Origin: Sphingobium sp. SCG-1
GTDB lineage: Bacteria > Pseudomonadota > Alphaproteobacteria > Sphingomonadales > Sphingomonadaceae
Assembly: GCF_002953135.1 (NCBI RefSeq)
Contig: NZ_CP026373.1
Location: forward strand, 155,795-179,794
Direction: 5' to 3'
Length of the DNA: 24,000 nucleotides
Part shown: positions 3,598 to 22,877 of the stretch, one piece after another
Position numbering within the stretch: the stretch's first letter is position 1
Layout of the letters: each line of letters begins with the position of its first letter
Made by a program: the position numbers and the translations under genes
The notes under the pieces: generated by a model
The model's input: only the letters and a program-made list of their open reading frames with translations
Told to the model about the DNA's origin: nothing
Databases searched by the model: none

Positions 3598-3739
3598 ACA
3601 AGCGTGGTCGTCAGGCTGACCGGGCGACGGCCAGCCTTCGGAGGGAAGGGCATCGCCCCGCCTTTGTGATCGCCTGTGATCCGCCTAGGATGGGCCCTCG
3701 CGAGGTTTGGCAGACGGCGCACAGGGACTCAAATTCAGT

Positions 3740-8974: not shown

Positions 8975-9973
8975 CTACAGAAACTGCGCCCCGGCATGAT
9001 CGTCGAACAGTTCGGCGCTGCGGACATATTCCGAGAGCACCTGCACCGACTTGTGGCGGCTGACGTCCTGCATCTTGAAGATGCTCGCCCGGTTGGCAGC
9101 CGCCTCGGTGAGGAATCCGGCGCGCAGCGAGTGGCCCGCATAGTGCGCCGGGTCGTAGCCGGCGGCGGCGGCGCAGCGCTGGACCAGGCGCGCGATGGCG
9201 CGGTCCGACATGCGATCGTCGGTGAGCTCATCGCGGCGAGAGAGCCGCCGGAAGAGGGGTCCCTCGGCATGGCCGGCCGCCGCCATCCAGGCTAGGAGCA
9301 ACGCCTTGGGACGAATCCGCTTGCCCTCCGGAATGGCGACGATAACGCCCTCGCGGGTCTGGTCGGTCTTCGACTTGGCGATCATCAACTCGATGCCTTT
9401 GTCGACGAGCCCGACGTCGGGCACATCGAACGCAACGAGTTCGGACCGGCGCAGCGCGGCCGACATGCCGATCGCGAGGAGCGCGCGGTCGCGCACCGCG
9501 CGCAGGCCATCGCCTTGGATCGTCTCGAGCATATGGCGTAGCGCGGCAGCGTCGGCGGCGCGCTTGCGGACCTTGGGCTTGCCGTGGGTCGCGCGGATGC
9601 CGGCGAGCACCTCGAGCAGCCGGCCGGAGCCGGGCACGGTGTTCGGCGGCGCATGACCGGCTTGGCGGTGATAATAGGCGATCGCCGAGATCCGCTTGCC
9701 GATGGTACGAGGGTTGGTGCCGGCATCGGCATCGGCGCTGGCGAACACCGCGACCGCATCGGGGCTCGCGGGCATTGCCTGGATGCCGTGCTGCTGACAC
9801 CAGGCGGTGAAGATCTTCCAGTCGGCCTCATAGGCGCGCCGGGTCGATGACGCCCGCGAGGCTTTGGCGTAGTCGGCGGCGCGCGCGATCTGCGCGTGGA
9901 GGATGTCGGGCAGCGCGGGCTGCTCGGCCACCACCGGCAACAGCCGCGACGGGTCCATGTCATCACTCATCAC
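8975..9973 (-). CDS. Cre-like tyrosine recombinase / site-specific integrase
   Basis: The N-domain (STRRAYEADWKIFTAWCQQHGIQAMPASPDAVAVF..TIGKRISAIAYYH) and the catalytic domain (ALRRSEL.., GHSLRAGFLTEAA.., SRHKSVQVLSEYVR) follow the Cre/P1-type layout, with the R..HxxR..H..Y residues present. The start is GTG 9973 or ATG 9970. Confidence 0.9.
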   Translation of the reverse strand: MMSDDMDPSRLLPVVAEQPALPDILHAQIARAADYAKASRASSTRRAYEADWKIFTAWCQQHGIQAMPASPDAVAVFASADADAGTNPRTIGKRISAIAYYHRQAGHAPPNTVPGSGRLLEVLAGIRATHGKPKVRKRAADAAALRHMLETIQGDGLRAVRDRALLAIGMSAALRRSELVAFDVPDVGLVDKGIELMIAKSKTDQTREGVIVAIPEGKRIRPKALLLAWMAAAGHAEGPLFRRLSRRDELTDDRMSDRAIARLVQRCAAAAGYDPAHYAGHSLRAGFLTEAAANRASIFKMQDVSRHKSVQVLSEYVRSAELFDDHAGAQFL

Positions 9974-10010
9974 GCGATCCTAACGCACCCCCTTCCGCGC
10001 ATCAATCTAC

Positions 10011-10036
10011 TGTCCGAGAATCACACTTCTCGGACA
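10011..10036. repeat. perfect 10-6-10 palindrome, candidate recombinase core site or operator
   Basis: TGTCCGAGAA (10011-10020), spacer TCACAC, then TTCTCGGACA (10027-10036). It sits 38 nt upstream of the recombinase start, at the point where G+C drops. Confidence 0.6.
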
Positions 10037-10192
10037 CAAGTTGCGATATCAGGAGTGTTAACGAACTCATTTTCAGGCGAGCAGAACCGTTTACGAAGCA
10101 TCCGAACCCCCCAGTCGGAACCAGCTGGTTGGACAACACCGATCGGTTCAGCTGGCGCAGTCGCCTGGCAGCCATAGCATCGCGCGAATCGG

Positions 10193-11080
10193 CTAGTGTG
10201 CAGAGTGTTTCCGGGCGACGACATTCAGTTCCTCGTTCTCGATGAAGTTCAGCATTTGCGGCACCATTTTCGGAAACGTTCTGTGCGGAGTGGCCGAACT
10301 GCAGTACGTGACGCTTTTGCCTGCGGCGCATCCCTTGAAGGATCGGCACCCGGACACCAGAGAATGATCTGGGATTGGCGTGCACCTGGCGCAGTTTGCC
10401 CACCAGGCGGCGGTCCCGCTCCCAAAGTCGGGGAACAGCTCGTCGGCAGGGTTGTGGATGATCAAAACAGCCGGGATGCCGGGACATTTGGCACCTTGAA
10501 GATCGTCTTCTGCAATTCCAGCGGCGGTCGCGACAACCGCACGCACTGGCAATTGCTTAGTTGCAAATATGGGAATGCCTTCAGCCATGGACCCACCGTC
10601 GGAATGACCGAGATAAGCGATCGCTCTTTGGTCGACACAATATCCTTGTTCTATCGTTGACGCCACAGCCGATTGGAGTTCGAGCGCGCGGCGCGAAAGA
10701 CTAACATGATCACTATAGGCCACGATGTTGCCGCGCCGGGTTGCCTCCGTGGTGAGATTGTAGAATGATTCTGATCGATGCCTGTCAAAGCCTGCCGGAG
10801 CAAATATGACGAGCAGTGGATAGGCCGTGGTGGCGTTATAATTATGTGGCGTTCGAACCCAGATCCGCAGCCCCGAGCTCGTCCTCAGCTCGTCGCCTAA
10901 ATCGATGTGTCCGCGACGACTTCCAGTAGCGCACGCCTCATTCAATCCAACAGCACGTGGCGCATCAGCCGTTGGCTGAATGGCGGGTTGGTACAGAAAT
11001 TGCGCAAGAATGCCGACTGCAATCGCCCCGGCAATCGCCGCAAAGCCGAGCTTTCCTCCAACCCGCGATACTTCATTCAC
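10193..11080 (-). CDS. membrane-anchored alpha/beta-hydrolase, PHB-depolymerase/LpqC-like esterase family
   Basis: There is an N-terminal hydrophobic anchor (FAAIAGAIAVGILAQFL). The core pattern is PLLVIFAPAG.., with nucleophile elbow GHSDGG and later IIHNPADELFP. The family call is from general pattern only. Confidence 0.6.
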   Translation of the reverse strand: MNEVSRVGGKLGFAAIAGAIAVGILAQFLYQPAIQPTADAPRAVGLNEACATGSRRGHIDLGDELRTSSGLRIWVRTPHNYNATTAYPLLVIFAPAGFDRHRSESFYNLTTEATRRGNIVAYSDHVSLSRRALELQSAVASTIEQGYCVDQRAIAYLGHSDGGSMAEGIPIFATKQLPVRAVVATAAGIAEDDLQGAKCPGIPAVLIIHNPADELFPDFGSGTAAWWANCARCTPIPDHSLVSGCRSFKGCAAGKSVTYCSSATPHRTFPKMVPQMLNFIENEELNVVARKHSAH

Positions 11081-11471: not shown

Positions 11472-12419
11472 CTAACGGTTGTCGACGCGTGGAAGCATCC
11501 TCGCCTCCGTTATCGCGAATAGATGCGATATCGATCGCTGAAGTTCGTAACGCGTGGCCTTGAGGTCGGCGAAGCGCGCAGGTATCTCGATGTTACCGGC
11601 CTCGACAGGGTCCAAGCCGCTCGCTACCGCCGTCTCGATCGCTGTCTGCAGCCAGGCGAGCCAGTCCTTGGTCTGGTCGATTGCAGTGGAAGCGGTTGGG
11701 TCGAAAGGGCCATGACCGGGCACAACGGAACGGTGCCCAAGCGACTTGAGCGTATCGAGCGTCGCTTGCCATCGACTCAGGTCCGCGTTGGGCGTGCTAG
11801 GCGCGCGATCGTGAAAGACAAGGTCGCCCGCGATGAGCGTTGAAGTCGTTTCGTCGAAATAAGCAACATCTGCCGCGCTGTGGCCGTTTAACGGAAGAAT
11901 GCGAATGCGACGATCACCAAAGTCCTCCACATCGGATGAGATGATATGGCCTGGTAAAACCAGTTCTGTGCCGCGCATCCAGTCACCGAGGATACGATAC
12001 ATTCCATCGGAATAGACCCTGCCCTCACTCGTAAGGTCGCTATTTAGTTCGGGCGTGGCCGCCACGAGCGACTTGTCGAATGCGCCATCACCGTAGCTAT
12101 GGTCAGGATGCAGATGGGTAAGAAAAACCCGAATGATTGGCATGCCCGTCAATCGTTCAGCCAGAGCCTTGAGCGCCGTGCCATAGCGTAGGGACGGCCC
12201 GCAATCGAACAGGACGGTGCCTTTGGGAGTCGCCAGAATAGTGATATTTGCGATTGCCCCGCCATTGGAACGAGCTATCGGCTCGTCCGCGCCGCGGACT
12301 ATCCAGAGCCCGTCACCGATTGAAACTGGCGTGATCGTATATTGAAGCGACTGTGCCCATGCCGCGCCGGCCACCGGCAAAGCCACCGTGGCGACCAATA
12401 GATCGCGCCGACTGATCAC
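11472..12419 (-). CDS. MBL-fold zinc hydrolase, quinoprotein relay system metallohydrolase type
   Basis: A Tat-like signal is present (ISRRDLLVATVALPVAGAAWA), with the H-x-H-x-D-H motif (THLHPDHSYG) and a later GHGP. The GTG start overlaps the stop of the upstream SoxYZ-like gene (GTGA at 12416-12419). Confidence 0.8.
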   Translation of the reverse strand: MISRRDLLVATVALPVAGAAWAQSLQYTITPVSIGDGLWIVRGADEPIARSNGGAIANITILATPKGTVLFDCGPSLRYGTALKALAERLTGMPIIRVFLTHLHPDHSYGDGAFDKSLVAATPELNSDLTSEGRVYSDGMYRILGDWMRGTELVLPGHIISSDVEDFGDRRIRILPLNGHSAADVAYFDETTSTLIAGDLVFHDRAPSTPNADLSRWQATLDTLKSLGHRSVVPGHGPFDPTASTAIDQTKDWLAWLQTAIETAVASGLDPVEAGNIEIPARFADLKATRYELQRSISHLFAITEARMLPRVDNR

Positions 12420-13234
12420 TTCAAGGCAGAGGCCAAGCCAACCGGACGATCCATAATAGCCAGCGTCGCATCATAGTCGATCCCATTGGTGTCGCGACCG
12501 GTGACCAGAAGCTTCGCGCTTTTGGAAGGAGCGACAATTACCGTAATCACTGGATCTTCGGCAACGGATGCCTCTATAGCGAGGCTCCCGAATATCTTTC
12601 CATCCGCGTCGGTCAGCGCCAAACTTTCGAGATGGTAAGTCGGAATATTCGCGACAAAACCGGTATCCATCGGATGACGCATGGCGAGACGAACGCGATC
12701 GCCGCCCTCGGTGTGCCAAGCACCGCCGCGGATTTCGCCAAGATGCTGTGACCAATCGCCCCGTGCACGGCTCAGCGGTGGCATCGAACATCCGCCACCC
12801 GCTGCATCCACCCACGCACCACTTACGAGCCAGGAACCATCCTTCAGTTGCACTGCGCCACGTACCGGGGTTCGCTGATCCAGTTTGATGTTGGTCGCGA
12901 GATAGGGCGCGGCGTCGGCCAGGACATAGTCGATGGCCAGCGGTATCGGATTGAGATCTGCAAAAATGAGGATGCGCTTAACGCCACTAATTGTTCGCGC
13001 GTCCACAGCTACAGGGAAGCTGCGCTGGTTCTCGGCGATCTGCGGCATGATCACGCGTACGCGCGGGTCGAAGCGAACGTCGCTGTCTCCGAAAAAGGTT
13101 TCACCTAGCGCCTTCCAGACAGGCGACTGGAGCGGATCGGCTGGAACTTCTGCGACAGCGGGACTGCTGCAGATGAACAGCGCAATAGCCGCCACGCCCA
13201 GACGCTTGGTCGGGTTGCTGTGATTCTTTCCCAT
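12416..13234 (-). CDS. quinoprotein dehydrogenase-associated SoxYZ-like carrier (SoxY-like plus SoxZ-like fusion)
   Basis: A signal peptide follows ATG 13234 (MGKNHSNPTKRLGVAAIALFICSSPAVA). The SoxY-like half ends in the carrier-type motif AAGGGCS, and the SoxZ-like half follows (RVRLAMRHPMDTGF..HLESLALTD). The track start 13264 is less likely. Confidence 0.8.
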   Translation of the reverse strand: MGKNHSNPTKRLGVAAIALFICSSPAVAEVPADPLQSPVWKALGETFFGDSDVRFDPRVRVIMPQIAENQRSFPVAVDARTISGVKRILIFADLNPIPLAIDYVLADAAPYLATNIKLDQRTPVRGAVQLKDGSWLVSGAWVDAAGGGCSMPPLSRARGDWSQHLGEIRGGAWHTEGGDRVRLAMRHPMDTGFVANIPTYHLESLALTDADGKIFGSLAIEASVAEDPVITVIVAPSKSAKLLVTGRDTNGIDYDATLAIMDRPVGLASALK

Positions 13235-13304
13235 AGCTCCAAAGTAGAATGGTCCAGCCGGCATTCCAATGGTACTTTAGGCTGATGCGGCGGAAAGGTA
13301 ATTG

Positions 13305-13841
13305 ATGCTAACTCTTGTCTTGGGCGCGGCCGTTGCAGTGGCAGGGATGCCCCTCACGGACGGTCGAGACTTCGATGCTGTTTCCGGTTATCGGATCGCG
13401 CATTATCGGTCAGTGGTCCCTTTCCCGCCCGAAGGGGTACGAAAGATCGAGGTCCAGGAGGCGCTCGAACTGCTTCGTCGGCAAGGCGCGTTGTTCGTAG
13501 ATGTAACGCCGGCGCAGGGAGGCCGTCGTGACGCGCTGACAGGCCATTGGGCCCTGGCTGAGACACATGAAACGATTCCAGGAGCCCGCTGGTTTCCGGA
13601 CGCCGGGCGGGGACAGTTGGAGCCAGTTGCCGAAGCATGGTTTCTCGGCGGCATGGCTCGCCTGTTACGAGGCTCCGTTCGGCCGATTGTTGTGTTTTGC
13701 CTTGCCGATTGCTGGATGAGTTGGAACGCCTCAATGCGACTGCGACGGGCCGGATACCGAGATGTGCGCTGGTTCGCCGACGGGGTGGACGGTTGGCGAG
13801 AAAAGGGCCTGATGCTCGTAAATAGATATCCGGAAAATTAA
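13305..13841 (+). CDS. rhodanese-like, PQQ-dependent catabolism-associated CXXCW-motif protein family
   Basis: The C-terminal string VVFCLADCWMSWNASMRLRRAGYRDVRWFADGVDGWREKGL matches my memory of this family's Cys-..-Cys-Trp-Met-Ser region. GGAAAGG lies 6 nt upstream of ATG 13305. The gene is divergent from the SoxYZ-like gene. Confidence 0.72.
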   Translation: MLTLVLGAAVAVAGMPLTDGRDFDAVSGYRIAHYRSVVPFPPEGVRKIEVQEALELLRRQGALFVDVTPAQGGRRDALTGHWALAETHETIPGARWFPDAGRGQLEPVAEAWFLGGMARLLRGSVRPIVVFCLADCWMSWNASMRLRRAGYRDVRWFADGVDGWREKGLMLVNRYPEN

Positions 13842-13980: not shown

Positions 13981-14010
13981 TGGCACATTAGACTAAAGTG
14001 CCATCGACAG
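13981..14010 (+). promoter_or_regulatory. conserved box A (shared with 22914-22943), includes dyad TGGCAC-N11-GTGCCA
   Basis: GCACA-TTAGAC-TAAA-GTG-C-CATCGACAG here aligns with GCACA-TA-TTAGAC-CTTA-GTG-T-CATCGACAG upstream of the CoA-transferase gene. That is 24 of 28 aligned positions identical with one 2-nt indel. Confidence 0.45.
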
Positions 14011-14093
14011 TCGATTGGTAAGACGCCATCCAATATCCTCGCGCAGTATTTTAAGCCGCCAGCGTAGCTGACGGAAACAGGGAGAGGGGCTCG

Positions 14094-14234
14094 ATGGCCT
14101 TCAGTCAGTTCCAGTCACCACCCAATGTTGCGGACGTGTTTTTACTCATCTCCGGTGGGCGGATTTTGGGACGTTACGACCAGCTAAGCCATTGTTCTAA
14201 AATCCAAAACTCGCGCGACGAGCTTGGGCCGTGA
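14094..14234 (+). CDS. possible 46-aa leader ORF upstream of the monooxygenase operon
   Basis: ATG 14094 is preceded by GGGAGAGGGG (14080-14089). The translation is MAFSQFQSPPNVADVFLLISGGRILGRYDQLSHCSKIQNSRDELGP*. No homology recognised. Confidence 0.2.
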   Translation: MAFSQFQSPPNVADVFLLISGGRILGRYDQLSHCSKIQNSRDELGP

Positions 14235-14314
14235 TGTCTCACGGCAGTCAACCGGACTGCATCGGGTAATTAGGTCTAAGCAGCCGACCGTAAAAAGATG
14301 GAAGGAGTAGAGTG

Positions 14315-15106
14315 ATGGCAACAGTTGCAAATGCGACTCCGCTTGGGAGACCAAGCGATGATCGGAAGATTGTGAATTTTAAGATCCCCGCAATAGCCAC
14401 GGTAGGCCTTTTGGCGATCATGGTTTTCTACAGAACCTTTCAAAGGATGTTCGCCTGGACTGCGGGGCTCGATTCCACGGATCCGGTTTTCGACACTTAC
14501 TGGATGGGTCTACTCAAAGCTGAACTGGTATTAATTCCATTGCTCTGGGTTGGCGTGTGGTCTTACATTTGGTTCACGCGAGACAAAAACCTGTATTCAA
14601 TTACGCCTCGAGAGGAACTTCGCAGGTACTTTAATCTGGTTTTGTTCATTTTCGTTTACGCAGTTGCTGTCTGGTTTGCAGCGAGCTTTTTCGCGGAGCA
14701 AGATGCATCTTGGCACCAGACTGTCGTTCGCGACACCAGCTTCACACCGAGCCATGTGGTGCTCTTCTACGGCACCATGCCTTTGTACGTGACGTTCGGC
14801 GTCGGCTCTTTGCTTTACGCAACGACCCGTCTGCCAAAATATGCAGACAATATTTCGATTCCGCTGGTTCTAGCGGTGGCTGGTCCATTCATGATTCTCC
14901 CGAACCTGGGCTTCAATGAATGGGGCCACGCCTTCTGGATGATGGAAGAGGTGTTCACGGCGCCGCTGCACTGGGGCTTCGTTGTCATGGGCTGGACAGT
15001 CTTGGCTCTAGGTGGTCTGCTGCTGCAGATCGCGCAGCATATGATCACCCTTCTCAGGCAGATGGGCGAACTTGCCGAAAGCGAGGGTGAGGTCATCGCG
15101 GGCTAG
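14315..15106 (+). CDS. pmoC: copper membrane monooxygenase subunit C (PmoC/AmoC family)
   Basis: EQDASWHQTVVRDTSFTPSH gives D-x3-H-x12-H. NEWGHAFWMMEEVFTAPLHW gives N-x3-H-x13-H. There are multiple TM helices, and a GGAAGGAG SD lies upstream of ATG 14315 (a GTG at 14312 is also possible). Confidence 0.93.
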   Translation: MATVANATPLGRPSDDRKIVNFKIPAIATVGLLAIMVFYRTFQRMFAWTAGLDSTDPVFDTYWMGLLKAELVLIPLLWVGVWSYIWFTRDKNLYSITPREELRRYFNLVLFIFVYAVAVWFAASFFAEQDASWHQTVVRDTSFTPSHVVLFYGTMPLYVTFGVGSLLYATTRLPKYADNISIPLVLAVAGPFMILPNLGFNEWGHAFWMMEEVFTAPLHWGFVVMGWTVLALGGLLLQIAQHMITLLRQMGELAESEGEVIAG

Positions 15107-15114
15107 TTCAGGAT

Positions 15115-15149
15115 TATTGCGCGAGATCGGCTCGGTGTCGGTTTCGCGC
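15115..15149 (+). other. intercistronic stem-loop between subunit C and A genes
   Basis: TTGCGCGA (15115-15122) and TCGCGCAA (15142-15149) are exact complements with a 19-nt loop. An A-rich tract follows and there is no U-tract. Confidence 0.4.
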
Positions 15150-15221
15150 AAAACGAAAAACAACGGTTACAGGGGGCGCGCATGCGCTTGGCATTTCGTC
15201 GCCGGAAGCATGGAGAGTAAG

Positions 15222-16076
15222 ATGAGAGACAATCCAGGACAAACAATTTATGGAATAAAGTGGTCGAAGGAAGGGGCAAAGCTATCGCGGACCTTCGACA
15301 TCATCGTCGCGGTGATCCTGTTGCTGGCGGTCGCCGGCGCGACTCATCTTCACTTCATGCTACTTGCGGGCGATTGGGACTTTTGGGTCGATTGGAAAGA
15401 CCGGGAATTCTGGGTGACGTTGACGCCGATTGTGGCGATCATGTTTCCAGCGGCCTTGCAGTATATGTTCTGGAAATATTTTCGTCTCCCGATTGCCGCA
15501 ACGCTGGCAATTGTGGGCCTGATGATCGGCGAGTGGCTCAACCGCTATTACGGCTTCCATCTGTGGTCCTATTTCCCAATGAGCATGGTGTGGCCCGCAA
15601 TGCTACTGCCGAGCGCACTAGCTCTGGATGCCATTCTCTTGCTCACCGGCAATTTCCTGTTGACTGCGATATTCGGCGGAATGGCGTTTTCTCTGCTGTT
15701 CTACCCTTCGAACTGGTTCATGTTGGCCCCATACAGATTGCCCGTGCAGATCATGGATTATCTTGCATCTGTGGGTGACGTGATGGGTTACTCGTTCACG
15801 CGAACGGCAACTCCAGAATATCTTCGGATGATCGAACGCGGCACGTTAAGGACATTCGGTGGACACTCCGCGACGGTGTCGGCCTTTTTTAGCGGCTTTG
15901 TATGCATATTAACATATATGGTCTGGTGGGGCTTTGGCGTCCTTTTCTCGCGCGTGATCACCGTCCCGAATACGTTCAAGAAGCTCCTTGGCCTGGTTCC
16001 AAAGGCAGCCGGAACGTCGACGCAGCAAGGGGGCAAGGATACTAAGCTTACAACAAGCACCGTGGGGGGGGTTTGA
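15222..16076 (+). CDS. pmoA: copper membrane monooxygenase subunit A (PmoA/AmoA family)
   Basis: Hallmark strings are HLHFMLLAGDWDFWVDWKDREFWVT, IGEWLNRYYGF, LLFYPSNW and TPEYLRMIERGTLRTFGGH. ATG 15222 has GGAG 6 nt upstream (ATG 15210 is also possible). The track ORF start 15072 overlaps subunit C and is not family-like. Confidence 0.93.
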   Translation: MRDNPGQTIYGIKWSKEGAKLSRTFDIIVAVILLLAVAGATHLHFMLLAGDWDFWVDWKDREFWVTLTPIVAIMFPAALQYMFWKYFRLPIAATLAIVGLMIGEWLNRYYGFHLWSYFPMSMVWPAMLLPSALALDAILLLTGNFLLTAIFGGMAFSLLFYPSNWFMLAPYRLPVQIMDYLASVGDVMGYSFTRTATPEYLRMIERGTLRTFGGHSATVSAFFSGFVCILTYMVWWGFGVLFSRVITVPNTFKKLLGLVPKAAGTSTQQGGKDTKLTTSTVGGV

Positions 16077-16080
16077 GAAC

Positions 16081-17367
16081 ATGCAGCTAATAATAGGGAA
16101 AACACGCAACATCTTCCGGCGCTTGACGGCAGCTTTGCTGCTGATCGTCAGCCTTGCCGGAGCTGGTTTGTCATCGCCGGCTTTTGCCCATGGTGAGCGC
16201 AATCAGGAACCCTTTTTAAGGCTCCGTACCGCTCACTTCTACGATGTAAAATGGAGTTCCAAATCGGTCCCAGTGAACGGTAGTATAATCATAACTGGCC
16301 GGTTTAGACTCTTTAAAGAATGGCCAGCCAACCTTCCCAAGCCAGACGTTGCATTTTTGGGCAATGGTACGCCAGGACCAGTCTTCGTGAGGACGGAAAG
16401 CTATATCAACGGGGTTCCGGCAATCCAATCTGCGCCGCTGGAGCTCGACCGAGATTATGCTTTCAAATTTGTGCTAAAGGCACGAATTCCTGGCCGTCAC
16501 CACGTCCACCCTATGATCAACGCCCAAGAAGCGGGGCCGCTACTCGGCCCGGGGGAATGGGTGACAGTGACAGGTTCCCATGCCGACTTCAAATTGCCTG
16601 TTCGGACGATCAACGGAACCTTCATTCCCAATTTGGAGACGTGGGGACTTGATCGCGTTTACTTGTGGAACGGCCTGTGGTTCGCCATTGCTATTGGATG
16701 GCTACTCTTCTGGCTGCGGCGCCCACTCCTCATCACCCGCTACTTGGCGGTGACCGAAGGCAAGGAAGAGGCTCTGATCTCGAACAAGGACCGCGTTGTC
16801 GGAGCAATCCTGCTAGCATCGACCATCGTGATCGTCTTCGTTGGATATGTCGTCACTGACAACGCCTTCCCGCGCACAATTCCTTTGCAAGGCGGTCGAG
16901 CGAGCGTCGAACCTTTGCCGTTCACCCCCGGTGCAGTGAAGGTGTATGTTACCAAGTCGACTTATGATGTGCCTGGCCGCTCCCTAAAAATTGAGATGAA
17001 TCTCACCAATGAGGGGCCAGCGCCAGTCCAACTGGGTGAATTCCTCACGTCGAATCTCCGGTTTATCAACGCGAGCGTTCCAGCAGCAGTAAAGGGTCTG
17101 GATCCAAACTATCCGCGCGATGTCGTGCCGGTAAATGGTCTAAAAGTTAGTGACAACCGGCCTATCGCCCCGGGCGAAACGCGCAAAATTGCTGTTGCGG
17201 CGACAGACGTAGCTTGGGAAAAAGAAAGACTGACGAGCTTGTTGAACGATCCTGACAACCTGGTGGGGGGACTCTTGTTCTTCTTCGATGCGGCCGGGAA
17301 TCGATCAATCAGCAACGTGTCTGGGCCTATGGTACCAGTCTTTACGGCAGAAACGGTGAAAGGCTGA
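16081..17367 (+). CDS. pmoB: copper membrane monooxygenase subunit B (PmoB/AmoB family)
   Basis: The signal peptide ends ..SSPAFA, and the mature end is HGERNQEPFLRLRTAHFYDVKW. The H-x-H string is GRHHVHPMINAQEAGPLLGPGEWVTVTG. There are two central TM helices and a C-terminal beta-rich domain. ATG 16081 lies 4 nt after the subunit A stop. Confidence 0.93.
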   Translation: MQLIIGKTRNIFRRLTAALLLIVSLAGAGLSSPAFAHGERNQEPFLRLRTAHFYDVKWSSKSVPVNGSIIITGRFRLFKEWPANLPKPDVAFLGNGTPGPVFVRTESYINGVPAIQSAPLELDRDYAFKFVLKARIPGRHHVHPMINAQEAGPLLGPGEWVTVTGSHADFKLPVRTINGTFIPNLETWGLDRVYLWNGLWFAIAIGWLLFWLRRPLLITRYLAVTEGKEEALISNKDRVVGAILLASTIVIVFVGYVVTDNAFPRTIPLQGGRASVEPLPFTPGAVKVYVTKSTYDVPGRSLKIEMNLTNEGPAPVQLGEFLTSNLRFINASVPAAVKGLDPNYPRDVVPVNGLKVSDNRPIAPGETRKIAVAATDVAWEKERLTSLLNDPDNLVGGLLFFFDAAGNRSISNVSGPMVPVFTAETVKG

Positions 17368-17377
17368 ATTCCCGCGA

Positions 17378-17427
17378 CTTTGCTCAGGGTTGCGCCACGC
17401 TAGTGCGCGGCGGGACTCTGAGCAAAG
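17378..17427 (+). other. strong stem-loop immediately after the subunit B gene
   Basis: CTTTGCTCAG (17378-17387) and CTGAGCAAAG (17418-17427) are exact 10-bp complements with a 30-nt loop. No U-tract follows. Confidence 0.5.
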
Positions 17428-17466
17428 GACGATGACATTGTAATCGTAGGATTTGGAGAGTTGATC

Positions 17467-18048
17467 ATGAGGCTGACTGGTCGTCGAGGAGTCGCCGCAT
17501 ATTGTTTAATCATTTTTTGCGCGCCGACATCTGCTCATGCTCACGGCGGCCTGACGATGGAGAAAGACGTCTGCAAGCTTCAGGTCGGCCAGTATCAAAT
17601 GCATTTCAACGGGTATCAGCCCGACAGCCAGGGTGCCGAGCAGTTCTGCGAAGATATTCCGAGTACCGGCAGAACCGTAATCGTTCTCGATTTCATTGAC
17701 GATAATCTGCGCAAGCTTCCGATCGATGTGAGGGTGGTCAAAGCGTCTGGTTCGGAGGCGGATCTTGCGAAGGCCACAGTCTTTCATGTCGAGCCGCGGG
17801 TCTATCCGACAGGATCACTTTCATTTTCGTATGATTTCAAGGAGGGGGGGAATTTTATCGGGCTGGTTTCCGCAGGTGGTGACACCGCGCATGTGGCACG
17901 ATTCCCGTTCGCTGTCGGCAGCATGTGGCTGCACTGGAGAAAACCTCTCGGACTCCTGGCGATCATGCTCCTCGCGGTCGGCGGACTGTTCGGATACTCT
18001 ACGCTCAAAAGACCGGCCAAACGAAGCAGCGCGCAACGCCGTGTATAG
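17467..18048 (+). CDS. secreted, C-terminally membrane-anchored protein in the PmoD/AmoD position (family unconfirmed)
   Basis: GGAGAG lies 6 nt upstream of ATG 17467. The signal peptide ends ..APTSAHA, followed by HGGLTMEKDVCKLQVGQYQMHFNGYQ, a ~140-aa soluble part, then a TM helix (LGLLAIMLLAVGGLFGY) and a basic tail. Confidence 0.75.
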   Translation: MRLTGRRGVAAYCLIIFCAPTSAHAHGGLTMEKDVCKLQVGQYQMHFNGYQPDSQGAEQFCEDIPSTGRTVIVLDFIDDNLRKLPIDVRVVKASGSEADLAKATVFHVEPRVYPTGSLSFSYDFKEGGNFIGLVSAGGDTAHVARFPFAVGSMWLHWRKPLGLLAIMLLAVGGLFGYSTLKRPAKRSSAQRRV

Positions 18049-18095
18049 GACACTGGCGGTAACATCAGCGCGCCGGATGATTTTCCCACGAGAAA

Positions 18096-18470
18096 GTGAT
18101 CAAGAAAATGCGAATATCGACCCTTTCGCTGGTGTGCATCGCCTGCATTCCATCTCCGCTTTTTGCGCATGCCGCGTTGGTTAAGTCAGTGCCGGGCAGT
18201 CGCGCCGTGATCGACAAGATGCCGCCACAGGTGGAACTGTGCTTCAATGAGGAAGTCGACCTCAAATTTTCGACATTTTCGATTAGCGACACGGCGGGCA
18301 AACATGCGCCGCTTGGACCTATAAAACTCGGTCGCGACGCGCGGTGCCTATCTGCCAAGAGCGGAGCTCTCGCCAAAGGCACCTATCAGCTTAACTATCA
18401 TGTACTCTCGAAGGATGGTCATATTGTTAAGTATGGACTGCAATTCACCATTCGTGCGGATTCCAAATAA
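18096..18470 (+). CDS. copC: periplasmic copper-binding protein CopC
   Basis: The signal peptide ends ..SPLFA, and the mature end is HAALVKSVPG. The family end-string GTYQLNYHVLSKDGHIVKYGLQFTI is present. The start is GTG 18096 or ATG 18108. Confidence 0.9.
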   Translation: MIKKMRISTLSLVCIACIPSPLFAHAALVKSVPGSRAVIDKMPPQVELCFNEEVDLKFSTFSISDTAGKHAPLGPIKLGRDARCLSAKSGALAKGTYQLNYHVLSKDGHIVKYGLQFTIRADSK

Positions 18471-18472
18471 CA

Positions 18473-20476
18473 GTGAATGAGTTGCTGTCAGCGTCCACGA
18501 CGGCAATTATCAACGCTACTTTGGCCTGGTTGATCGGAGCCTCGCTTTTCAGTCTGTCGACGGCGCATCTTTCAAACGCGGTTCTCTGGAACTGGCGAAA
18601 GAAGATGCGTTTGGGGACAATGGTCGCGGCGCTCATTTTACCGGTTGCTCTGGTTCTCAACCTGGCAGCGCGGTCGGCTTCCGCTAATGATGTCCATCTT
18701 TGGGCCATCATGACGGATCCCAAGCTGGTGCTGGAATTCGCCGCTGGAAGCTCGTCCGGTCAGGTGGTCTACATTCGCTTGCTTATGGCGTGTTTCGGAG
18801 CGGTTTGCCTCGGAGGTGCTTGGTTTTGGGACCGATCTGCGCCGTGGCGCCTGACCCATATCATTGCGCTTGCCGTCGGCGTTATCTCTGGCGTCATCGG
18901 ACCGCTCGGGGGCCATGTCGCCGGCGATGAGGCTACCCGATGGTTGGTGCCGATCCATATTGCCCATATCCTTGCAATGGCCACATGGCTCGGGGGGCTG
19001 CCTGGCTGGGTAGGCCTGGTCATCTGCACGAGCCAAACCCCATCATCGCCATTGCAAAGAGATGTGCTTGCAGCATTACGCAGCTTCTCCAAGCTGGCTA
19101 CAGCTTGCATGGCTATTATTATTACGTCAGGCGTGGCGCTGGCCAGCGCCTGGATCAAGTCACAGGGGGACTTGATCGGGACGACGTACGGCTGGCTTCT
19201 ATGCGCCAAAATATGCATTTTGATGGCTGTTTTGCTGTTGGCGAACCGGGTTCGCAAGCGACTGCTATCTGGCCACAATCGCCAGGGCCACAAACTCGGG
19301 CTGGGCGTTCCCGTCGCGCGCTGGGTGGTCGCGGAACTCGCGCTTGGCGGCGTGATTTTAGGATTGGCAGGAACACTCGCGCAGACGACTCCCGCGGTGC
19401 ATGATCAGCCGGTCTGGATCCTTCCTTTCAGGATCGCGCTTTCAGCAACATGGCCCGTATGGCCGACAATGTGGGTCTTTCCGATCGCGACCGGGGTCGC
19501 CTGTCTTTCGCTTCTGACCGGTTTCGCGCGCTGGGCGTCACTCTCCCGAGCCCGGCGCGCGCTCCTGGCGGCTGCGGGACTGTTAGCAGCCGGAGTTGCC
19601 GCCTGGGCCGCTAGCGTGCCGGCTTACCCAGAGACCTATCGGCGATCGACGTCGCCATATCTCACAGTCTCCATCGCGCAGGGCGCCAAGAATTACCGAG
19701 AAAATTGCACCGCTTGTCACGGACCCGGTGGACAAGGCGACGGGCCGCTTGCCAAATCGCTGCCCAAGCCACCGGCGAATCTCTCCCAACCCCACACAGC
19801 GCTACACACGGGCGGCGACCTCTATTGGTGGATCAAAAATGGCATTCCGGAAAGCGGTATGCCGCCATTCGGTGATATGTTTGATGAGCAGAGCATTTGG
19901 GACACTGCAAATTTCCTTCGGGTTTTTTCCCAAGGGTTTGAAGCCAGGGTGCTCTCGCCGCTGATCGCGCCAAACGGCCCCTGGCTCGGCGCACCGGACT
20001 TCTATTTTGAGCGATCCGATGGCTCGCCAGGCGAGCTGAAAGACTTTCGACACGCCGCAAACGTGCTGATCGCCGTATTTCCGGCTGCCTCCGGGTCGAC
20101 CTCGGCGCGCGTGAAGCAGCTTGTAATGGCCCAGCGCACATTGGCGGCGTCAGGGATTCAACTGATCCTCGTTACGCCGCACAAATTGCCGAATCTCCCT
20201 AACACGATTGTTCAAGTTAACGATGACGCCGCGCAGGTGATCGAGAGCTACGCATTCCTGTCGCGCACTCTAGCCAACAAAGGCCGCAGCAATGAACTCA
20301 ACATGAGCCGCAGCTATGTCGAGTTCCTCATCGATCGTTTCGGCTTCGTCCGCGGACGCTGGATACCCGAAGAAGATCGCGACGGTTGGCAGAATCTTGT
20401 GAAACTGAAGCAAATATCAAAGACGCTTTTCGACGAACCGGAGATACGCGGATCGCCGGATGCCCATATTCATTGA
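18473..20476 (+). CDS. copD: CopD-family membrane protein fused to a class I cytochrome c domain and a Cys-less thioredoxin/redoxin-like domain
   Basis: The N-terminal ~390 aa are polytopic and CopD-like (..HIAHILAMATWLGGLPGW..). The heme motif CTACH is encoded at 19706-19720, with a likely axial Met in GMPPF (ATG 19859-19861). The C-terminal ~165 aa follow a redoxin pattern (APDFYFERSDGSPGELKDF..VLIAVFPAASGST..EFLIDRFGFVRGRW), with the CxxC position replaced by AASG. The GTG start lies 2 nt after the copC stop and is uncertain. Confidence 0.85.
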   Translation: MNELLSASTTAIINATLAWLIGASLFSLSTAHLSNAVLWNWRKKMRLGTMVAALILPVALVLNLAARSASANDVHLWAIMTDPKLVLEFAAGSSSGQVVYIRLLMACFGAVCLGGAWFWDRSAPWRLTHIIALAVGVISGVIGPLGGHVAGDEATRWLVPIHIAHILAMATWLGGLPGWVGLVICTSQTPSSPLQRDVLAALRSFSKLATACMAIIITSGVALASAWIKSQGDLIGTTYGWLLCAKICILMAVLLLANRVRKRLLSGHNRQGHKLGLGVPVARWVVAELALGGVILGLAGTLAQTTPAVHDQPVWILPFRIALSATWPVWPTMWVFPIATGVACLSLLTGFARWASLSRARRALLAAAGLLAAGVAAWAASVPAYPETYRRSTSPYLTVSIAQGAKNYRENCTACHGPGGQGDGPLAKSLPKPPANLSQPHTALHTGGDLYWWIKNGIPESGMPPFGDMFDEQSIWDTANFLRVFSQGFEARVLSPLIAPNGPWLGAPDFYFERSDGSPGELKDFRHAANVLIAVFPAASGSTSARVKQLVMAQRTLAASGIQLILVTPHKLPNLPNTIVQVNDDAAQVIESYAFLSRTLANKGRSNELNMSRSYVEFLIDRFGFVRGRWIPEEDRDGWQNLVKLKQISKTLFDEPEIRGSPDAHIH

Positions 20477-20487
20477 GCGAGGAAGCT

Positions 20488-21012
20488 ATGTGGAAATCAA
20501 CTGTACTTGTTTTGCCTCTCATGATCGCAAGTTGCTCGGGAGGAGCCCAAAAGACTCCAGATGCCCCAAAGGAAGCGCACTCCGAGCACAACATGGCAGC
20601 GATGCCGGGCATGGGAAACATGAGCGATCCAGGACACGATATGTCTTCGATGGACGACGCAAAGCCGGTGGCTTCAACCGATACACCCCCACTAAAAATT
20701 GTCGGCCCCATTGATGGCGCGACGATTGGGCAGCGCGTGGCCGTTGTTTTTGAGGGACCCGCTCAGCTTTCCAAATATACGATGGATAATCCTGAGGCGG
20801 CAGCTCACCTGCACATTGCGCTCGACGATACTGAGCTTATGCCGATGGGCGAGCAGTTGATCAGCTTGGGCGCCAAGCAATATGTTTTCATATTCGATTT
20901 ACCAACAAAACCGGGACGTCACACGATAAGTCTCTATTGGGCCGATCGGCTTCACAAGAAGATTGAAAATGGTGTCCAGACTATATCTGTAGAAGTGACC
21001 GGTTCCAAGTAA
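20488..21012 (+). CDS. lipoprotein with Met/His-rich copper-type motif and a DUF4399-like beta domain
   Basis: GAGGAAG SD then ATG 20488. The lipobox is LMIASC. The metal-type stretch is HSEHNMAAMPGMGNMSDPGHDMSSMDD. A ~115-aa domain follows with AAHLHIALDD and GRHTISLYW, which resembles what I recall of DUF4399. The track start 20386 overlaps copD. Confidence 0.8.
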   Translation: MWKSTVLVLPLMIASCSGGAQKTPDAPKEAHSEHNMAAMPGMGNMSDPGHDMSSMDDAKPVASTDTPPLKIVGPIDGATIGQRVAVVFEGPAQLSKYTMDNPEAAAHLHIALDDTELMPMGEQLISLGAKQYVFIFDLPTKPGRHTISLYWADRLHKKIENGVQTISVEVTGSK

Positions 21013-21086
21013 TACCTTGGAACGTCCGTTGTTCGTAGCGGTTCGGGATTTCCCTTAGACGGAGATTTCGCCAGCGTTATTTCTGC

Positions 21087-22877
21087 ATGCCAAAAAGGAA
21101 AGGTCAAGTCTTGTACAACGCGCCGATACTGGAGCAATCATTTGTCCTCAAAACGATAGCGAGTTTGAGGGAAATCGCAGGTCACGCTAGATTCTCTCTG
21201 GCAAATGACGAACTGGTCGACGCTATTTTGCAGCAGGCGGGCAAATTGGCCGGCGAGGTATTTGGGCCGCTGTGTCGCTCCGGTGACATCGAGGGTGCGC
21301 GATGGGAAGACGGAAATGTCGTTCTGCCCAACGGATTTCGCGATGCTTACAATCTATATCGCGAGGGCGGCTGGGCCTCCCTGCACGCCGATCCTGACAC
21401 CGGTGGACAAGGATTGCCGTTTGCGCTATCGTGTGCCGTTCAGGAACAGTTGACCTCGGCCAATATGGCTTTTGCCCTGTGCATGATGCTTAGCCAGGGC
21501 GCAATTCATGCCCTTTCGCACCATGCCTCCGAGGAATTGCAGCGTCGCTTTCTCAGTCGCCTTGTGAGCGGCGAATGGACTGGCACGATGAACCTTACAG
21601 AGCCGCAAGCCGGTTCGGACGTGGGCGCTCTAAGGACGCAGGCGACGCCCGATGTTGACGGCCGTTACAGGATATCCGGCGAGAAGATTTTCATAACATG
21701 GGGCGACCATGACGTTGCTGAGAACATCGTCCATCTGGTGCTCGCCCGTCTGCCCGGAGCTCCGGTCGGGACCAAAGGCATTTCACTCTTTCTTGTTCCT
21801 AAGTTCCTCGTGAACGACGACGGCACCCTCGGGAACAGGAATGGAGTGTCGTGCCGTTCGCTGGAAAGAAAGCTCGGAATCCACGCGTCGCCGACCTGCA
21901 CCATGCAATTTGGCGACGAGAGTATTTGCTTTGGCTGGCTCGTAGGGGAGGAAAACCAGGGCATGGCGGCGATGTTTACGATGATGAACCACGCCAGAAT
22001 CAACGTCGGTCTCCAAGGCGTCGCTATTGCAGAGCGCGCTTATCAACGCAGCGTTAAATATGCTTACGAACGGCAACAGCATGGACGGCTGATTGCGACG
22101 TTCCCCGATGTGCGCCGCATGCTAATGACGATGCGTGCGAACACGCAGGCAGCACGGGCTTTGGTCTATTATACGGCGTCCCAGGTCGATTTGGCCGCAG
22201 CGGCGGCCGAGCCCGTCGATCGCAGGCAATTCCAGTGTCGGGCCGATCTCCTGACACCCGTGGCAAAAAGCTGGGCAACGGATCTGGGCGTCGAAACGAC
22301 GTCGCTGGGAATCCAGGTTTTGGGCGGCTTGGGGTATATTGAGGACAGTGGGGCGGCGCAGGATTTTCGCGACGCGCGGATCGCTCCCATTTATGAAGGA
22401 ACGAATGGCATTCAGGCCATCGACCTCGTTGCCCGGAAACTGGGCATCGACGATGGTAGGCATTGGCGCGAACTGTTTGCAGAAATTGAAAACTCGCTGA
22501 CGCGCGCTTCACTTATCCCCACGCTTGAATCGATGGCATCCGCTTTGCGCTCGGGCCTGGAAGCTGTGTCTCGATCTACGCTTTGGCTGACGAGCAGCGC
22601 TTCAAATCTGCCCGATCAGCGGTTGGCGGCCGCTTCAGCCTATCTAAGAATCTTTGGAAATCTCGTCGGGGGATGGCTTTTACTAATCGAGGCTGAGGCG
22701 ACACTCGGCGATCTATATTCGCAGGAATATGATCGCGCGTTTCTTGATGCCAAGGTAGCGACGGCGAAATTCTTCGCAGAGCAGATCGTCGCACCCCAAT
22801 CCGCCATCTCGAGTGGTCTTTTGCTCGCCGGTAGCGGTGACTATCAGCTGAGTGGAGATCAGATGCTCTCCCGGTGA
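21087..22877 (+). CDS. long-form acyl-CoA dehydrogenase (~590 aa class with extra N- and C-terminal domains)
   Basis: Typical strings are GTMNLTEPQAGSDVGALRTQATPDVDGRYRISGEKIFITWGDHDVAENIVHLVLARLPGAPVGTKGISLFLVPKF and ..QVLGGLGYIEDSGAAQDFRDARIAPIYEGTNGIQAIDLV. An alternative TTG start at 21111 has GGAAAGG upstream. Confidence 0.9.
   Translation: MPKRKGQVLYNAPILEQSFVLKTIASLREIAGHARFSLANDELVDAILQQAGKLAGEVFGPLCRSGDIEGARWEDGNVVLPNGFRDAYNLYREGGWASLHADPDTGGQGLPFALSCAVQEQLTSANMAFALCMMLSQGAIHALSHHASEELQRRFLSRLVSGEWTGTMNLTEPQAGSDVGALRTQATPDVDGRYRISGEKIFITWGDHDVAENIVHLVLARLPGAPVGTKGISLFLVPKFLVNDDGTLGNRNGVSCRSLERKLGIHASPTCTMQFGDESICFGWLVGEENQGMAAMFTMMNHARINVGLQGVAIAERAYQRSVKYAYERQQHGRLIATFPDVRRMLMTMRANTQAARALVYYTASQVDLAAAAAEPVDRRQFQCRADLLTPVAKSWATDLGVETTSLGIQVLGGLGYIEDSGAAQDFRDARIAPIYEGTNGIQAIDLVARKLGIDDGRHWRELFAEIENSLTRASLIPTLESMASALRSGLEAVSRSTLWLTSSASNLPDQRLAAASAYLRIFGNLVGGWLLLIEAEATLGDLYSQEYDRAFLDAKVATAKFFAEQIVAPQSAISSGLLLAGSGDYQLSGDQMLSR

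Follow-up and report, generated by a model that had tools for sequence, protein, structure and literature searches.

Four accessory genes follow the monooxygenase genes

The 24,000-nucleotide stretch of Sphingobium sp. SCG-1 DNA analysed here (the window; contig NZ_CP026373.1, positions 155,795 to 179,794) carries the three genes of a copper membrane monooxygenase (CuMMO), pmoCAB, and four further genes behind them on the same strand (Table 1). These four encode a PmoD/AmoD protein, CopC, a CopD joined to a cytochrome c domain and a peroxiredoxin-fold domain, and a small lipoprotein, and they probably form the accessory half of an extended CuMMO operon. The pmoD/amoD homologue sits immediately 3' of pmoCAB. 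As a preliminary description of this DNA had reported, the genes are separated by short gaps: 99 nt between pmoB and pmoD (17368-17466), 47 nt between pmoD and copC (59 nt if CopC begins at ATG 18108), 2 nt between copC and copD, and 11 nt before the lipoprotein gene.

The PmoD, CopD and lipoprotein sequences were 100% identical to C1T17_20600, C1T17_20610 and C1T17_20615, hypothetical proteins carried by a 236,976-bp plasmid of Sphingobium sp. SCG-1. Megablast of 14000-21100 against the plasmids of PLSDB gave no match. The strain came from soil at the site of a major natural-gas leak (PMC7660913). As publicly annotated, the plasmid encodes shortened forms of two of the four proteins, which hides their export signals. 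PmoD is started at an internal Met (163 aa, beginning MEKDV), with loss of the signal peptide and of the histidine that follows it (His1 of the predicted mature chain), and the lipoprotein is started at Met36 (139 aa), with loss of the lipobox. Both longer N-termini are kept in homologues, and GGAG stands ahead of ATG 17467. For subunit A, the mechanical open reading frame (ORF) opens at 15072; the start is probably ATG 15222 or 15210, and the homologue in an 89%-related metagenomic locus (L001) has 284 aa.

Table 1. Features of the CuMMO region, in window coordinates
Feature	Position	Strand	Evidence
CuMMO subunit C (pmoC/amoC-like)	14312..15106	+	Pfam AmoC 321 bits; NCBIfam AmoC_BACT 360 bits, above cut-off
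CuMMO subunit A	15222..16076	+	Pfam AMO 325 bits
CuMMO subunit B, with signal peptide	16081..17367	+	Pfam Monooxygenase_B 470 bits
Strong RNA hairpin in the pmoB-pmoD spacer	17378..17427	+	minimum free energy and shuffle z-score; same-site hairpin in L001
pmoD/amoD homologue, AmoD type	17467..18048	+	family profile against PDB, AlphaFold2 model, Foldseek, motif
copC, predicted single-Cu(II)-site (C0-1) type	18108..18470	+	Pfam CopC; alternative GTG start 18096
copD membrane domain, residues 1-385 of 667-aa fusion, ~10 transmembrane segments	18473..19627	+	Pfam CopD, hydropathy
Periplasmic c-type cytochrome domain of CopD fusion	19628..19939	+	Pfam Cytochrome_CBB3/Cytochrom_C above cut-off
Cys-less peroxiredoxin/thioredoxin-fold domain of CopD fusion	19940..20476	+	profile against PDB AhpE 5ID2
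Lipoprotein with immunoglobulin-like domain	20488..21012	+	lipobox, AlphaFold2 model, CuMMO-cluster homologues

The first accessory gene encodes an AmoD-type PmoD

The product of the first accessory gene, which the preliminary description had treated as an unknown ORF, gave no match to Pfam or NCBIfam. A profile built from 26 homologues returned a single match in the PDB: 6CPD, the PmoD of Methylocystis sp. Rockwell (E 9.4e-34). The same structure was the top Foldseek match (TM-score 0.83, root-mean-square deviation 2.1 Å) for an AlphaFold2 (AF2) model with a predicted local distance difference test (pLDDT) score of 86.8.

PmoD proteins are recognized by a signal peptide, two invariant cysteines and, at the C-terminal end, a transmembrane helix (PMC6189053). 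By sequence reading, the signal peptide covers residues 1-25 (MRLTGRRG, a hydrophobic core, then SAHA/H, the slash marking the predicted cleavage site). C36 and C61 were invariant in 26/26 homologues, and the AF2 model placed a membrane helix at residues ~153-180. The motif reads C36-x8-M45-H46...C61, or Cx8MHxnC, with Met nine and His ten positions after the first cysteine (C1+9 and C1+10). Proteins of this class are annotated as amoD in ammonia oxidisers, and formation of a CuA site has been shown for the Cx7MxH class only (PMC6189053). The Cx7MxHxnC pattern was absent, with Gln44 at C1+8 and Met at C1+9. With all defining features of Fisher et al. 2018 present, ORF 17467-18048 is a PmoD/AmoD protein of the AmoD subclass. 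Disruption of pmoD leads to a copper-dependent growth defect (PMC6189053). Membership of the YcnI/DUF1775 family was considered and rejected, there being no Pfam or NCBIfam match; YcnI is retained as an architectural and functional analogy.

Proteins in which PmoD is fused to CopC also exist, namely P0005 (metagenomic, 324 aa) and Bradyrhizobium sp. ERR11 Ga0061098_101195 (290 aa; Fisher Supplementary Data, PMC6189053), and their existence supports a functional coupling of PmoD and CopC. In P0005 the CopC signal peptide persists as a second hydrophobic segment ending ..LVDA/HARLL; if this site is cleaved, the CopC histidine could still become an N-terminus.

CopC and the CopD fusion

CopC scored 66.2 bits against Pfam PF04234 (cut-off 23.3) and CopD 66.2 bits against PF05425 (cut-off 32.1), so the family assignments proposed for these two proteins stood. 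CopC fell below the cut-off of the NCBIfam equivalog NF033814 (65.1 against 95 bits). Alignment to 5ICU and 9C14 showed that the downstream D-x-H motif is kept as Asp-Gly-His ('kDGHiv'). The mature protein contains a single Met, and the Met-rich Cu(I) loop of 1M42/1IX2 has no counterpart. Because the Asp-Gly-His is kept and the Met-rich loop is absent, CopC is, judged by these residues, of the single-Cu(II)-site C0-1 type. Such CopCs hold one Cu(II) through a histidine brace (PMC12362106, PMC6189053), in which an N-terminal His coordinates copper through both amine and imidazole.

The CopD fusion is a protein of 667 aa. Its membrane part has ~10 hydrophobic segments, and the alternation of K/R-rich loops (hydropathy and the positive-inside rule) places both termini in the periplasm. 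His148, His165 and His310 were invariant among homologues. The cytochrome domain, with CTACH at 412-416 and Met463, matched cytochrome c552 structures 9VR0/7O9U (E 2e-16). C412, C415, H416 and M463 were all invariant, and the domain shows the features of a class I c-type cytochrome: CXXCH, a distal Met and a predicted periplasmic location. The last ~178 residues form a thioredoxin-fold domain with no cysteine and an invariant terminal H665-x-H667. The profile of this domain (A4) matched AhpE 5ID2 (E 2.6e-8), and Pfam AhpC-TSA matched 16/18 homologues, the SCG-1 protein itself scoring 14.9 bits, under the cut-off of 26. An active peroxiredoxin was ruled out, given the Cys-less domain and the sub-threshold Pfam score; the kinship is at the level of the fold.

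We found 118 homologues of the fusion, including proteins of Bradyrhizobium, Nevskia, Panacagrimonas, Stagnimonas, Sinimarinibacterium, Paraburkholderia and Methylocella. The same fusion lies in CuMMO clusters of Nitrosomonadaceae, comammox (complete ammonia-oxidizing) Nitrospira, Bradyrhizobium, Nevskiales and Methylibium. By tblastn, almost all nitrifier loci examined had CopD, cytochrome c and the C-terminal domain in one contiguous stretch behind CopC. On one Nitrosomonadaceae chromosome, the genes amoC-A-B-E-D-copC precede a single 674-aa ORF that matches CopD, Cytochrom_C and AhpC-TSA. The fused CopD, offered earlier as a contrast to the nitrifiers, is therefore what occurs beside their amo genes as well. 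That the CopD of CuMMO clusters is a cytochrome c/peroxiredoxin-fold fusion ending in HxH suggests redox-coupled copper handling.

The fourth gene encodes a small lipoprotein

The last gene of the set encodes a protein with a lipobox, MWKSTVLVLPLMIAS/C (MIAS/C), whose Cys16 (codon 20533-20535) is conserved in L001. A disordered tether follows (residues 17-~62), in which 3 His and 6 Met fall within ~45 residues, in line with the Met/His-rich lipoprotein described earlier. AF2 modelled residues ~65-172 as an immunoglobulin (Ig)-like β-sandwich, with pLDDT ~90 over 65-170 and a disordered tail. Comparison by fold retrieved generic Ig-like domains only (best TM-score ~0.6, short targets), and comparison with the PDB by sequence gave nothing but a chance-level match to an AA11 lytic polysaccharide monooxygenase (LPMO; E 0.32). 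Assignment to DUF4399 (PF14347) was not borne out: all scores obtained (17.4-20.9 bits, with 17-18 bits for the SCG-1 lipoprotein) lay under the gathering cut-off of 28. Profile positions ~21-90 matched, below threshold, the C-terminal ~65 residues of the lipoprotein and of two distant homologues. Overall, three of four divergent members gave such sub-threshold matches, and the Methylibium homologue gave none.

A word-indexed search returned only 4 homologous proteins, and more were recovered by tblastn in fetched loci. Homologues follow copD in five CuMMO clusters (Bradyrhizobium niftali, B. cajani, B. uaiense, B. frederickii and B. forestalis), and in Methylibium the gene lies between pmoD and copC. 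All share the motif HLH…D.T..MP…QL…G…Y…F.LP..PG…YW.D..H, and their N-terminal segments are rich in His. The proteins from outside the Sphingobium lineage (Bradyrhizobium and Methylibium) have ordinary signal peptides and lack the lipobox Cys. The fourth gene may thus be described as encoding a small uncharacterised copper-type lipoprotein with a putative copper role, one of a family of small HxH-bearing Ig-fold proteins that recurs in non-nitrifier CuMMO clusters.

At a Nitrosomonadaceae chromosomal locus (L011, 11156-11665), the gene after copD encodes an unrelated 169-aa secreted protein without a Pfam match. It is predicted to mature to His (..PPVWS/HSDKY..) and carries a His-rich C-terminal tail (DSHADFHDQHGDDHSDHHKMHH).

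A histidine is the predicted N-terminus of three mature proteins

The preliminary description had predicted that PmoB, ORF 17467-18048 and CopC each mature to a histidine, and alignments and family conservation agree: in each protein a small-x-small site is followed by His. Cleavage sites were placed using the (-3,-1) rule, family conservation and alignment to the mature chains of solved structures. In PmoB (..SSPAFA/HGERN), His37 (codon 16189-16191) is the predicted residue 1. In the alignment this His stands opposite the first residue of the mature PmoB/AmoB chains 1YEW, 9CL6 and 9PXF, and the HxH motif is kept. In CopC (..PSPLFA/HAALV; signal peptide residues 1-20), His21 (codon 18168-18170) aligns with residue 1 of Methylosinus CopC (5ICU), the CopC domain of YcnJ (9C14) and Pseudomonas CopC (1M42). 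In PmoD (MRLTGRRGVAAYCLIIFCAPTSAHA/HGGLT), the predicted residue 1 is His26 (codon 17542-17544), and an alternative cut, TSA/HAHGG, likewise leaves His. Support for the mature His1 comes from alignment to solved mature chains for PmoB and CopC, and from conservation only for PmoD.

This conservation is extensive. PmoD His26 was invariant in 26/26 aligned homologues. We then surveyed 230 full-length members, drawn from the homologue search and from an exhaustive representative search in which the best 150 of 837 clusters at E <= 0.001 were analysed. His directly followed a small-x-small site in 220 of the 230, nearly always 10 residues before the first cysteine (Cys1), and did so in all 136 members of the Cx8MH class. 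In loci from GTDB genomes, both AmoD-type (..AxA/HGG..) and AmoE-type (..AAA/HG..) paralogues of Nitrosomonadaceae, comammox Nitrospira and Bradyrhizobium carry the residue; a third comammox Nitrospira paralogue reads ALA/QHGHE. As far as such alignments can tell, the recurrence of His at position 1 across PmoB, PmoD and CopC is not chance.

Supplementary Data 2 of Fisher et al. 2018 tabulates the position as 'H1', with H in NE0941/NE2060 and NE0942 and E in Met49242_1452. The main text of that paper makes no mention of a brace, and its PmoD constructs all had an additional N-terminal Ser-Met (PMC6189053). The N-terminal-His copper proteins listed in the YcnI paper are LPMOs, CopC, the PCuAC of PmoF and, in particulate methane monooxygenase (pMMO), the CuB site; PmoD is not included (PMC8424229). 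The near-universal predicted mature N-terminal His of PmoD is a feature that the Fisher et al. 2018 constructs could not probe. Given the 220/230 conservation and the Ser-Met extension of those constructs, a histidine-brace Cu(II) site in AmoD/PmoD is plausible. This N-terminal His would be, in our view, the most valuable lead of the locus.

Conserved gene order

The order CAB-PmoD-CopC-CopD::cytochrome c::peroxiredoxin-like recurs in Bradyrhizobium spp., Nitrosomonadaceae, metagenome-assembled genomes of Burkholderiales/Rhodocyclaceae, Panacagrimonas and Methylibium, and the CAB-PmoD-CopC-CopD order spans Alpha-, Beta- and Gammaproteobacteria. In comammox Nitrospira, PmoD paralogues adjoin copCD, with amoCAB nearby. 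The synteny with the nitrifier arrangement amoCAB-amoD-copCD claimed for SCG-1 was accordingly supported, since this order recurs in nitrifier loci. Taken as a whole, the earlier interpretation survives as a copper module with nitrifier-like synteny; its two contrasts with nitrifiers fall away, the unknown ORF being AmoD and the fused CopD being the norm.

Expression signals and genomic setting

The pmoB-pmoD spacer (17366-17470) folded with a minimum free energy of -47.6 kcal/mol (z -6.0), the hairpin standing just after the pmoB stop and lacking a U tract. A hairpin occupies the same site in L001 (2466-2515; z -5.05). It is a candidate 3'-end stabiliser of pmoCAB or a read-through attenuator, and might set the ratio of pmoCAB to accessory transcripts.

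The 3' neighbour of the CuMMO region is an acyl-CoA dehydrogenase gene. Upstream, positions 11472-13841 encode an MBL-fold protein, a SoxY/SoxZ-like protein and a CXXCW rhodanese-like protein associated with pyrroloquinoline quinone (PQQ; TIGR03865, 158 bits), all of them accessory to PQQ-dehydrogenase systems. A tyrosine recombinase gene (8975-9973, minus strand) lies where G+C falls from ~0.69 to 0.53-0.58 (profile 9000-11000). The recombinase and the drop in G+C would fit acquisition of the CuMMO region by the plasmid as an island. Further upstream of the island, a hybrid sensor kinase with three MHYT membrane repeats and PAS, HisKA, HATPase and receiver domains (3707-6022, plus strand) is a possible regulator.

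A proposed periplasmic copper line for the monooxygenase

Our analysis established domain identities, conserved residues, topology and conserved synteny. From these we infer, with a probability of about 80%, that 17467-21012 is the accessory half of a 'cabdcd' extended CuMMO operon and serves the enzyme as a periplasmic line that acquires and delivers copper; to the inferred part of this reading belong the way copper flows, what the cytochrome does, the PmoD brace and co-transcription.

Such a line might work as follows. The Met/His-rich tail of the lipoprotein, together with CopC, would capture copper, the C0-1 CopC holding one Cu(II) through the His1 amine and imidazole, an Asp and a His. 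CopD would take up the Cu(II) handed on by CopC. At the CopD mouth, the fused cytochrome c may supply an electron, reducing CopC-bound Cu(II) and releasing Cu(I). AmoD-type PmoD would present a cupredoxin-like periplasmic domain on its C-terminal helix, with His1 (His26), Cys36, Met45-His46 and Cys61 forming a cluster. Tethered in the membrane, it could buffer or relay copper beside CopC and the enzyme, as YcnI does with the CopC domain of YcnJ in Bacillus. The terminal HxH of CopD and the HxH and tether of the fourth protein could be extra points of copper hand-over. CopCD, YcnJ and YebZ have been implicated in copper uptake (PMC12362106), and the cupredoxin-fold protein YcnI, which is tethered to the membrane and has His at its N-terminus, exchanges Cu(II) with YcnJ's CopC domain (PMC8424229, PMC12362106). 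The function of PmoD/AmoD and the route of copper to enzymes of the pMMO and ammonia monooxygenase type bear on the oxidation of methane, ammonia and short alkanes.

A more ambitious version can be formulated, which we regard as speculative and rather unlikely to hold as a whole. AmoD/PmoD would bind Cu(II) by a histidine brace, a native site that the Ser-Met added to every construct of Fisher et al. 2018 would have masked. Copper would travel from CopC through membrane-tethered AmoD to the CuB site of PmoB in a three-brace relay by Cu(II) ligand exchange. The CopD cytochrome c would be a cupric reductase gating import, and the DUF4399-like protein would represent a new family for periplasmic copper capture.

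Several observations weigh against a copper line dedicated to the monooxygenase. In Bradyrhizobium diazoefficiens (loci L005/L065, two assemblies with a 410,250-bp contig each, assumed to be equivalent), the copC-copD-fourth-gene trio lies at ~142.7-145.5 kb, and pmoCAB-pmoD lies at ~159.5-163.0 kb on the opposite strand, ~14 kb away. The neighbours of the trio in L005 are a PQQ dehydrogenase and a cytochrome c, not a CuMMO. Because the trio is separate from the CuMMO there, it may supply copper more generally. In which direction CopCD transports copper is itself still debated. The CuA site of PmoD, seen only in the Cx7MxH class, points to electron transfer over copper delivery. At the level of expression, the stable hairpin could end most transcripts between pmoB and pmoD, and the scan for consensus promoters and terminators yielded no more sites than shuffled sequence and none in the junctions. 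The PmoD N-terminus is also modelled with low confidence (pLDDT <50, residues 22-25).

The accessory genes could instead be mainly a redox line, in which PmoD and the CopD-fused cytochrome c feed electrons to the monooxygenase and copper is cofactor, not cargo. Every CuMMO-linked CopD examined carries a fused c-type cytochrome in which CXXCH and Met are invariant, and PmoD of the Cx7MxH class, which forms a CuA-like site, has been proposed as an electron-transfer partner (PMC6189053, PMC13058606). The SCG-1 PmoD, however, belongs to the Cx8MH class, and CuA is confined to the other. The cytochrome is covalently joined to a CopD transporter domain that CopC always precedes, and the same fusion stands beside a PQQ dehydrogenase in B. 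diazoefficiens; we consider a primarily redox role improbable. Still less credible is a copper resistance or detoxification unit of the Pseudomonas cop type that is merely co-carried on the island. The first names given to CopC and CopD marked them as copper resistance proteins, and resistance systems often contain periplasmic proteins rich in Met and His. CopC and CopD are also widespread outside CuMMO organisms (PMC6189053). Yet the window genes examined included neither a CopA multicopper oxidase nor a CopB-like gene, the CopC has no Met-rich Cu(I) site and misses the equivalog cut-off (65 against 95), and the order behind the CuMMO genes is conserved across classes and phyla. In P. syringae, moreover, copCD raises copper uptake (as cited in PMC12362106).

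The three N-terminal histidines could also coincide through signal-peptide context, the PmoD His being structural or an ordinary side-chain ligand and not a brace. In-operon PmoDs of alphaproteobacterial methanotrophs have Glu at this position (RA/EGG..), a few PmoD relatives carry Gly, the third comammox paralogue begins with Gln, and the PmoD segment concerned is the poorly modelled one. On the other side, the fixed distance between His and Cys1 argues for a defined PmoD site in the 220 relatives that keep His after the small-x-small site, and YcnI, of the same architecture, uses exactly such a residue as a mono-histidine brace (PMC8424229). Coincidence is for these reasons doubtful in our estimation, though a possibility to be taken seriously. 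We retain the copper acquisition and delivery line as the reading of the locus.

Comparison with known systems

The SCG-1 cluster is a further member of the catalogued 'cabdcd' class of extended operons and not a new kind of system. This class, with Cx8MH PmoDs, includes N. europaea NE2060 (in the order amoCAB-NE2060-copCD), Nitrosospira multiformis Nmul_A2762, Bradyrhizobium sp. ERR11 and Skermanella aerolata (PMC6189053); the CuMMOs of Bradyrhizobium ERR11 and Solimonas have been described as being of unknown function (PMC6215863). Shared with these operons are CAB, a Cx8MHxnC PmoD, copC, and a copD with cytochrome c and AhpC/TSA-like fusion. Unlike them, the SCG-1 locus lies on a sphingomonad plasmid, has no amoE paralogue and includes the fourth gene, which is shared with Bradyrhizobium and Methylibium but was not seen in the nitrifier loci examined.

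Compared with the PmoD of Methylocystis sp. Rockwell (6CPD), the SCG-1 protein has the same signal peptide, cupredoxin-like domain, two invariant cysteines and C-terminal transmembrane helix, but is of the Cx8MH class and not the CuA-forming Cx7MxH class. Rockwell-type PmoDs have Glu at the predicted mature N-terminus, whereas the SCG-1 protein has His.

The pmoCAB-pmoD-copC-copD-pCuAC operon of Methylosinus trichosporium OB3b is likewise a five-to-seven-gene operon closing with a small secreted copper protein. In SCG-1 the last gene encodes a DUF4399-like Ig-fold lipoprotein rather than PCuAC (DUF461), and no PCuAC turned up among the window genes scanned. The YcnI/YcnJ pair of Bacillus subtilis (DUF1775 and CopC-CopD-YtkA) resembles the SCG-1 set in placing a membrane-tethered β-sandwich protein with an N-terminal His beside CopC/CopD, and YcnJ in having a C0-1 CopC and a CopD with an extra extracytoplasmic C-terminal domain. 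The SCG-1 PmoD differs in having no DUF1775 match, and the SCG-1 CopD carries cytochrome c and peroxiredoxin-like additions where YcnJ has YtkA.

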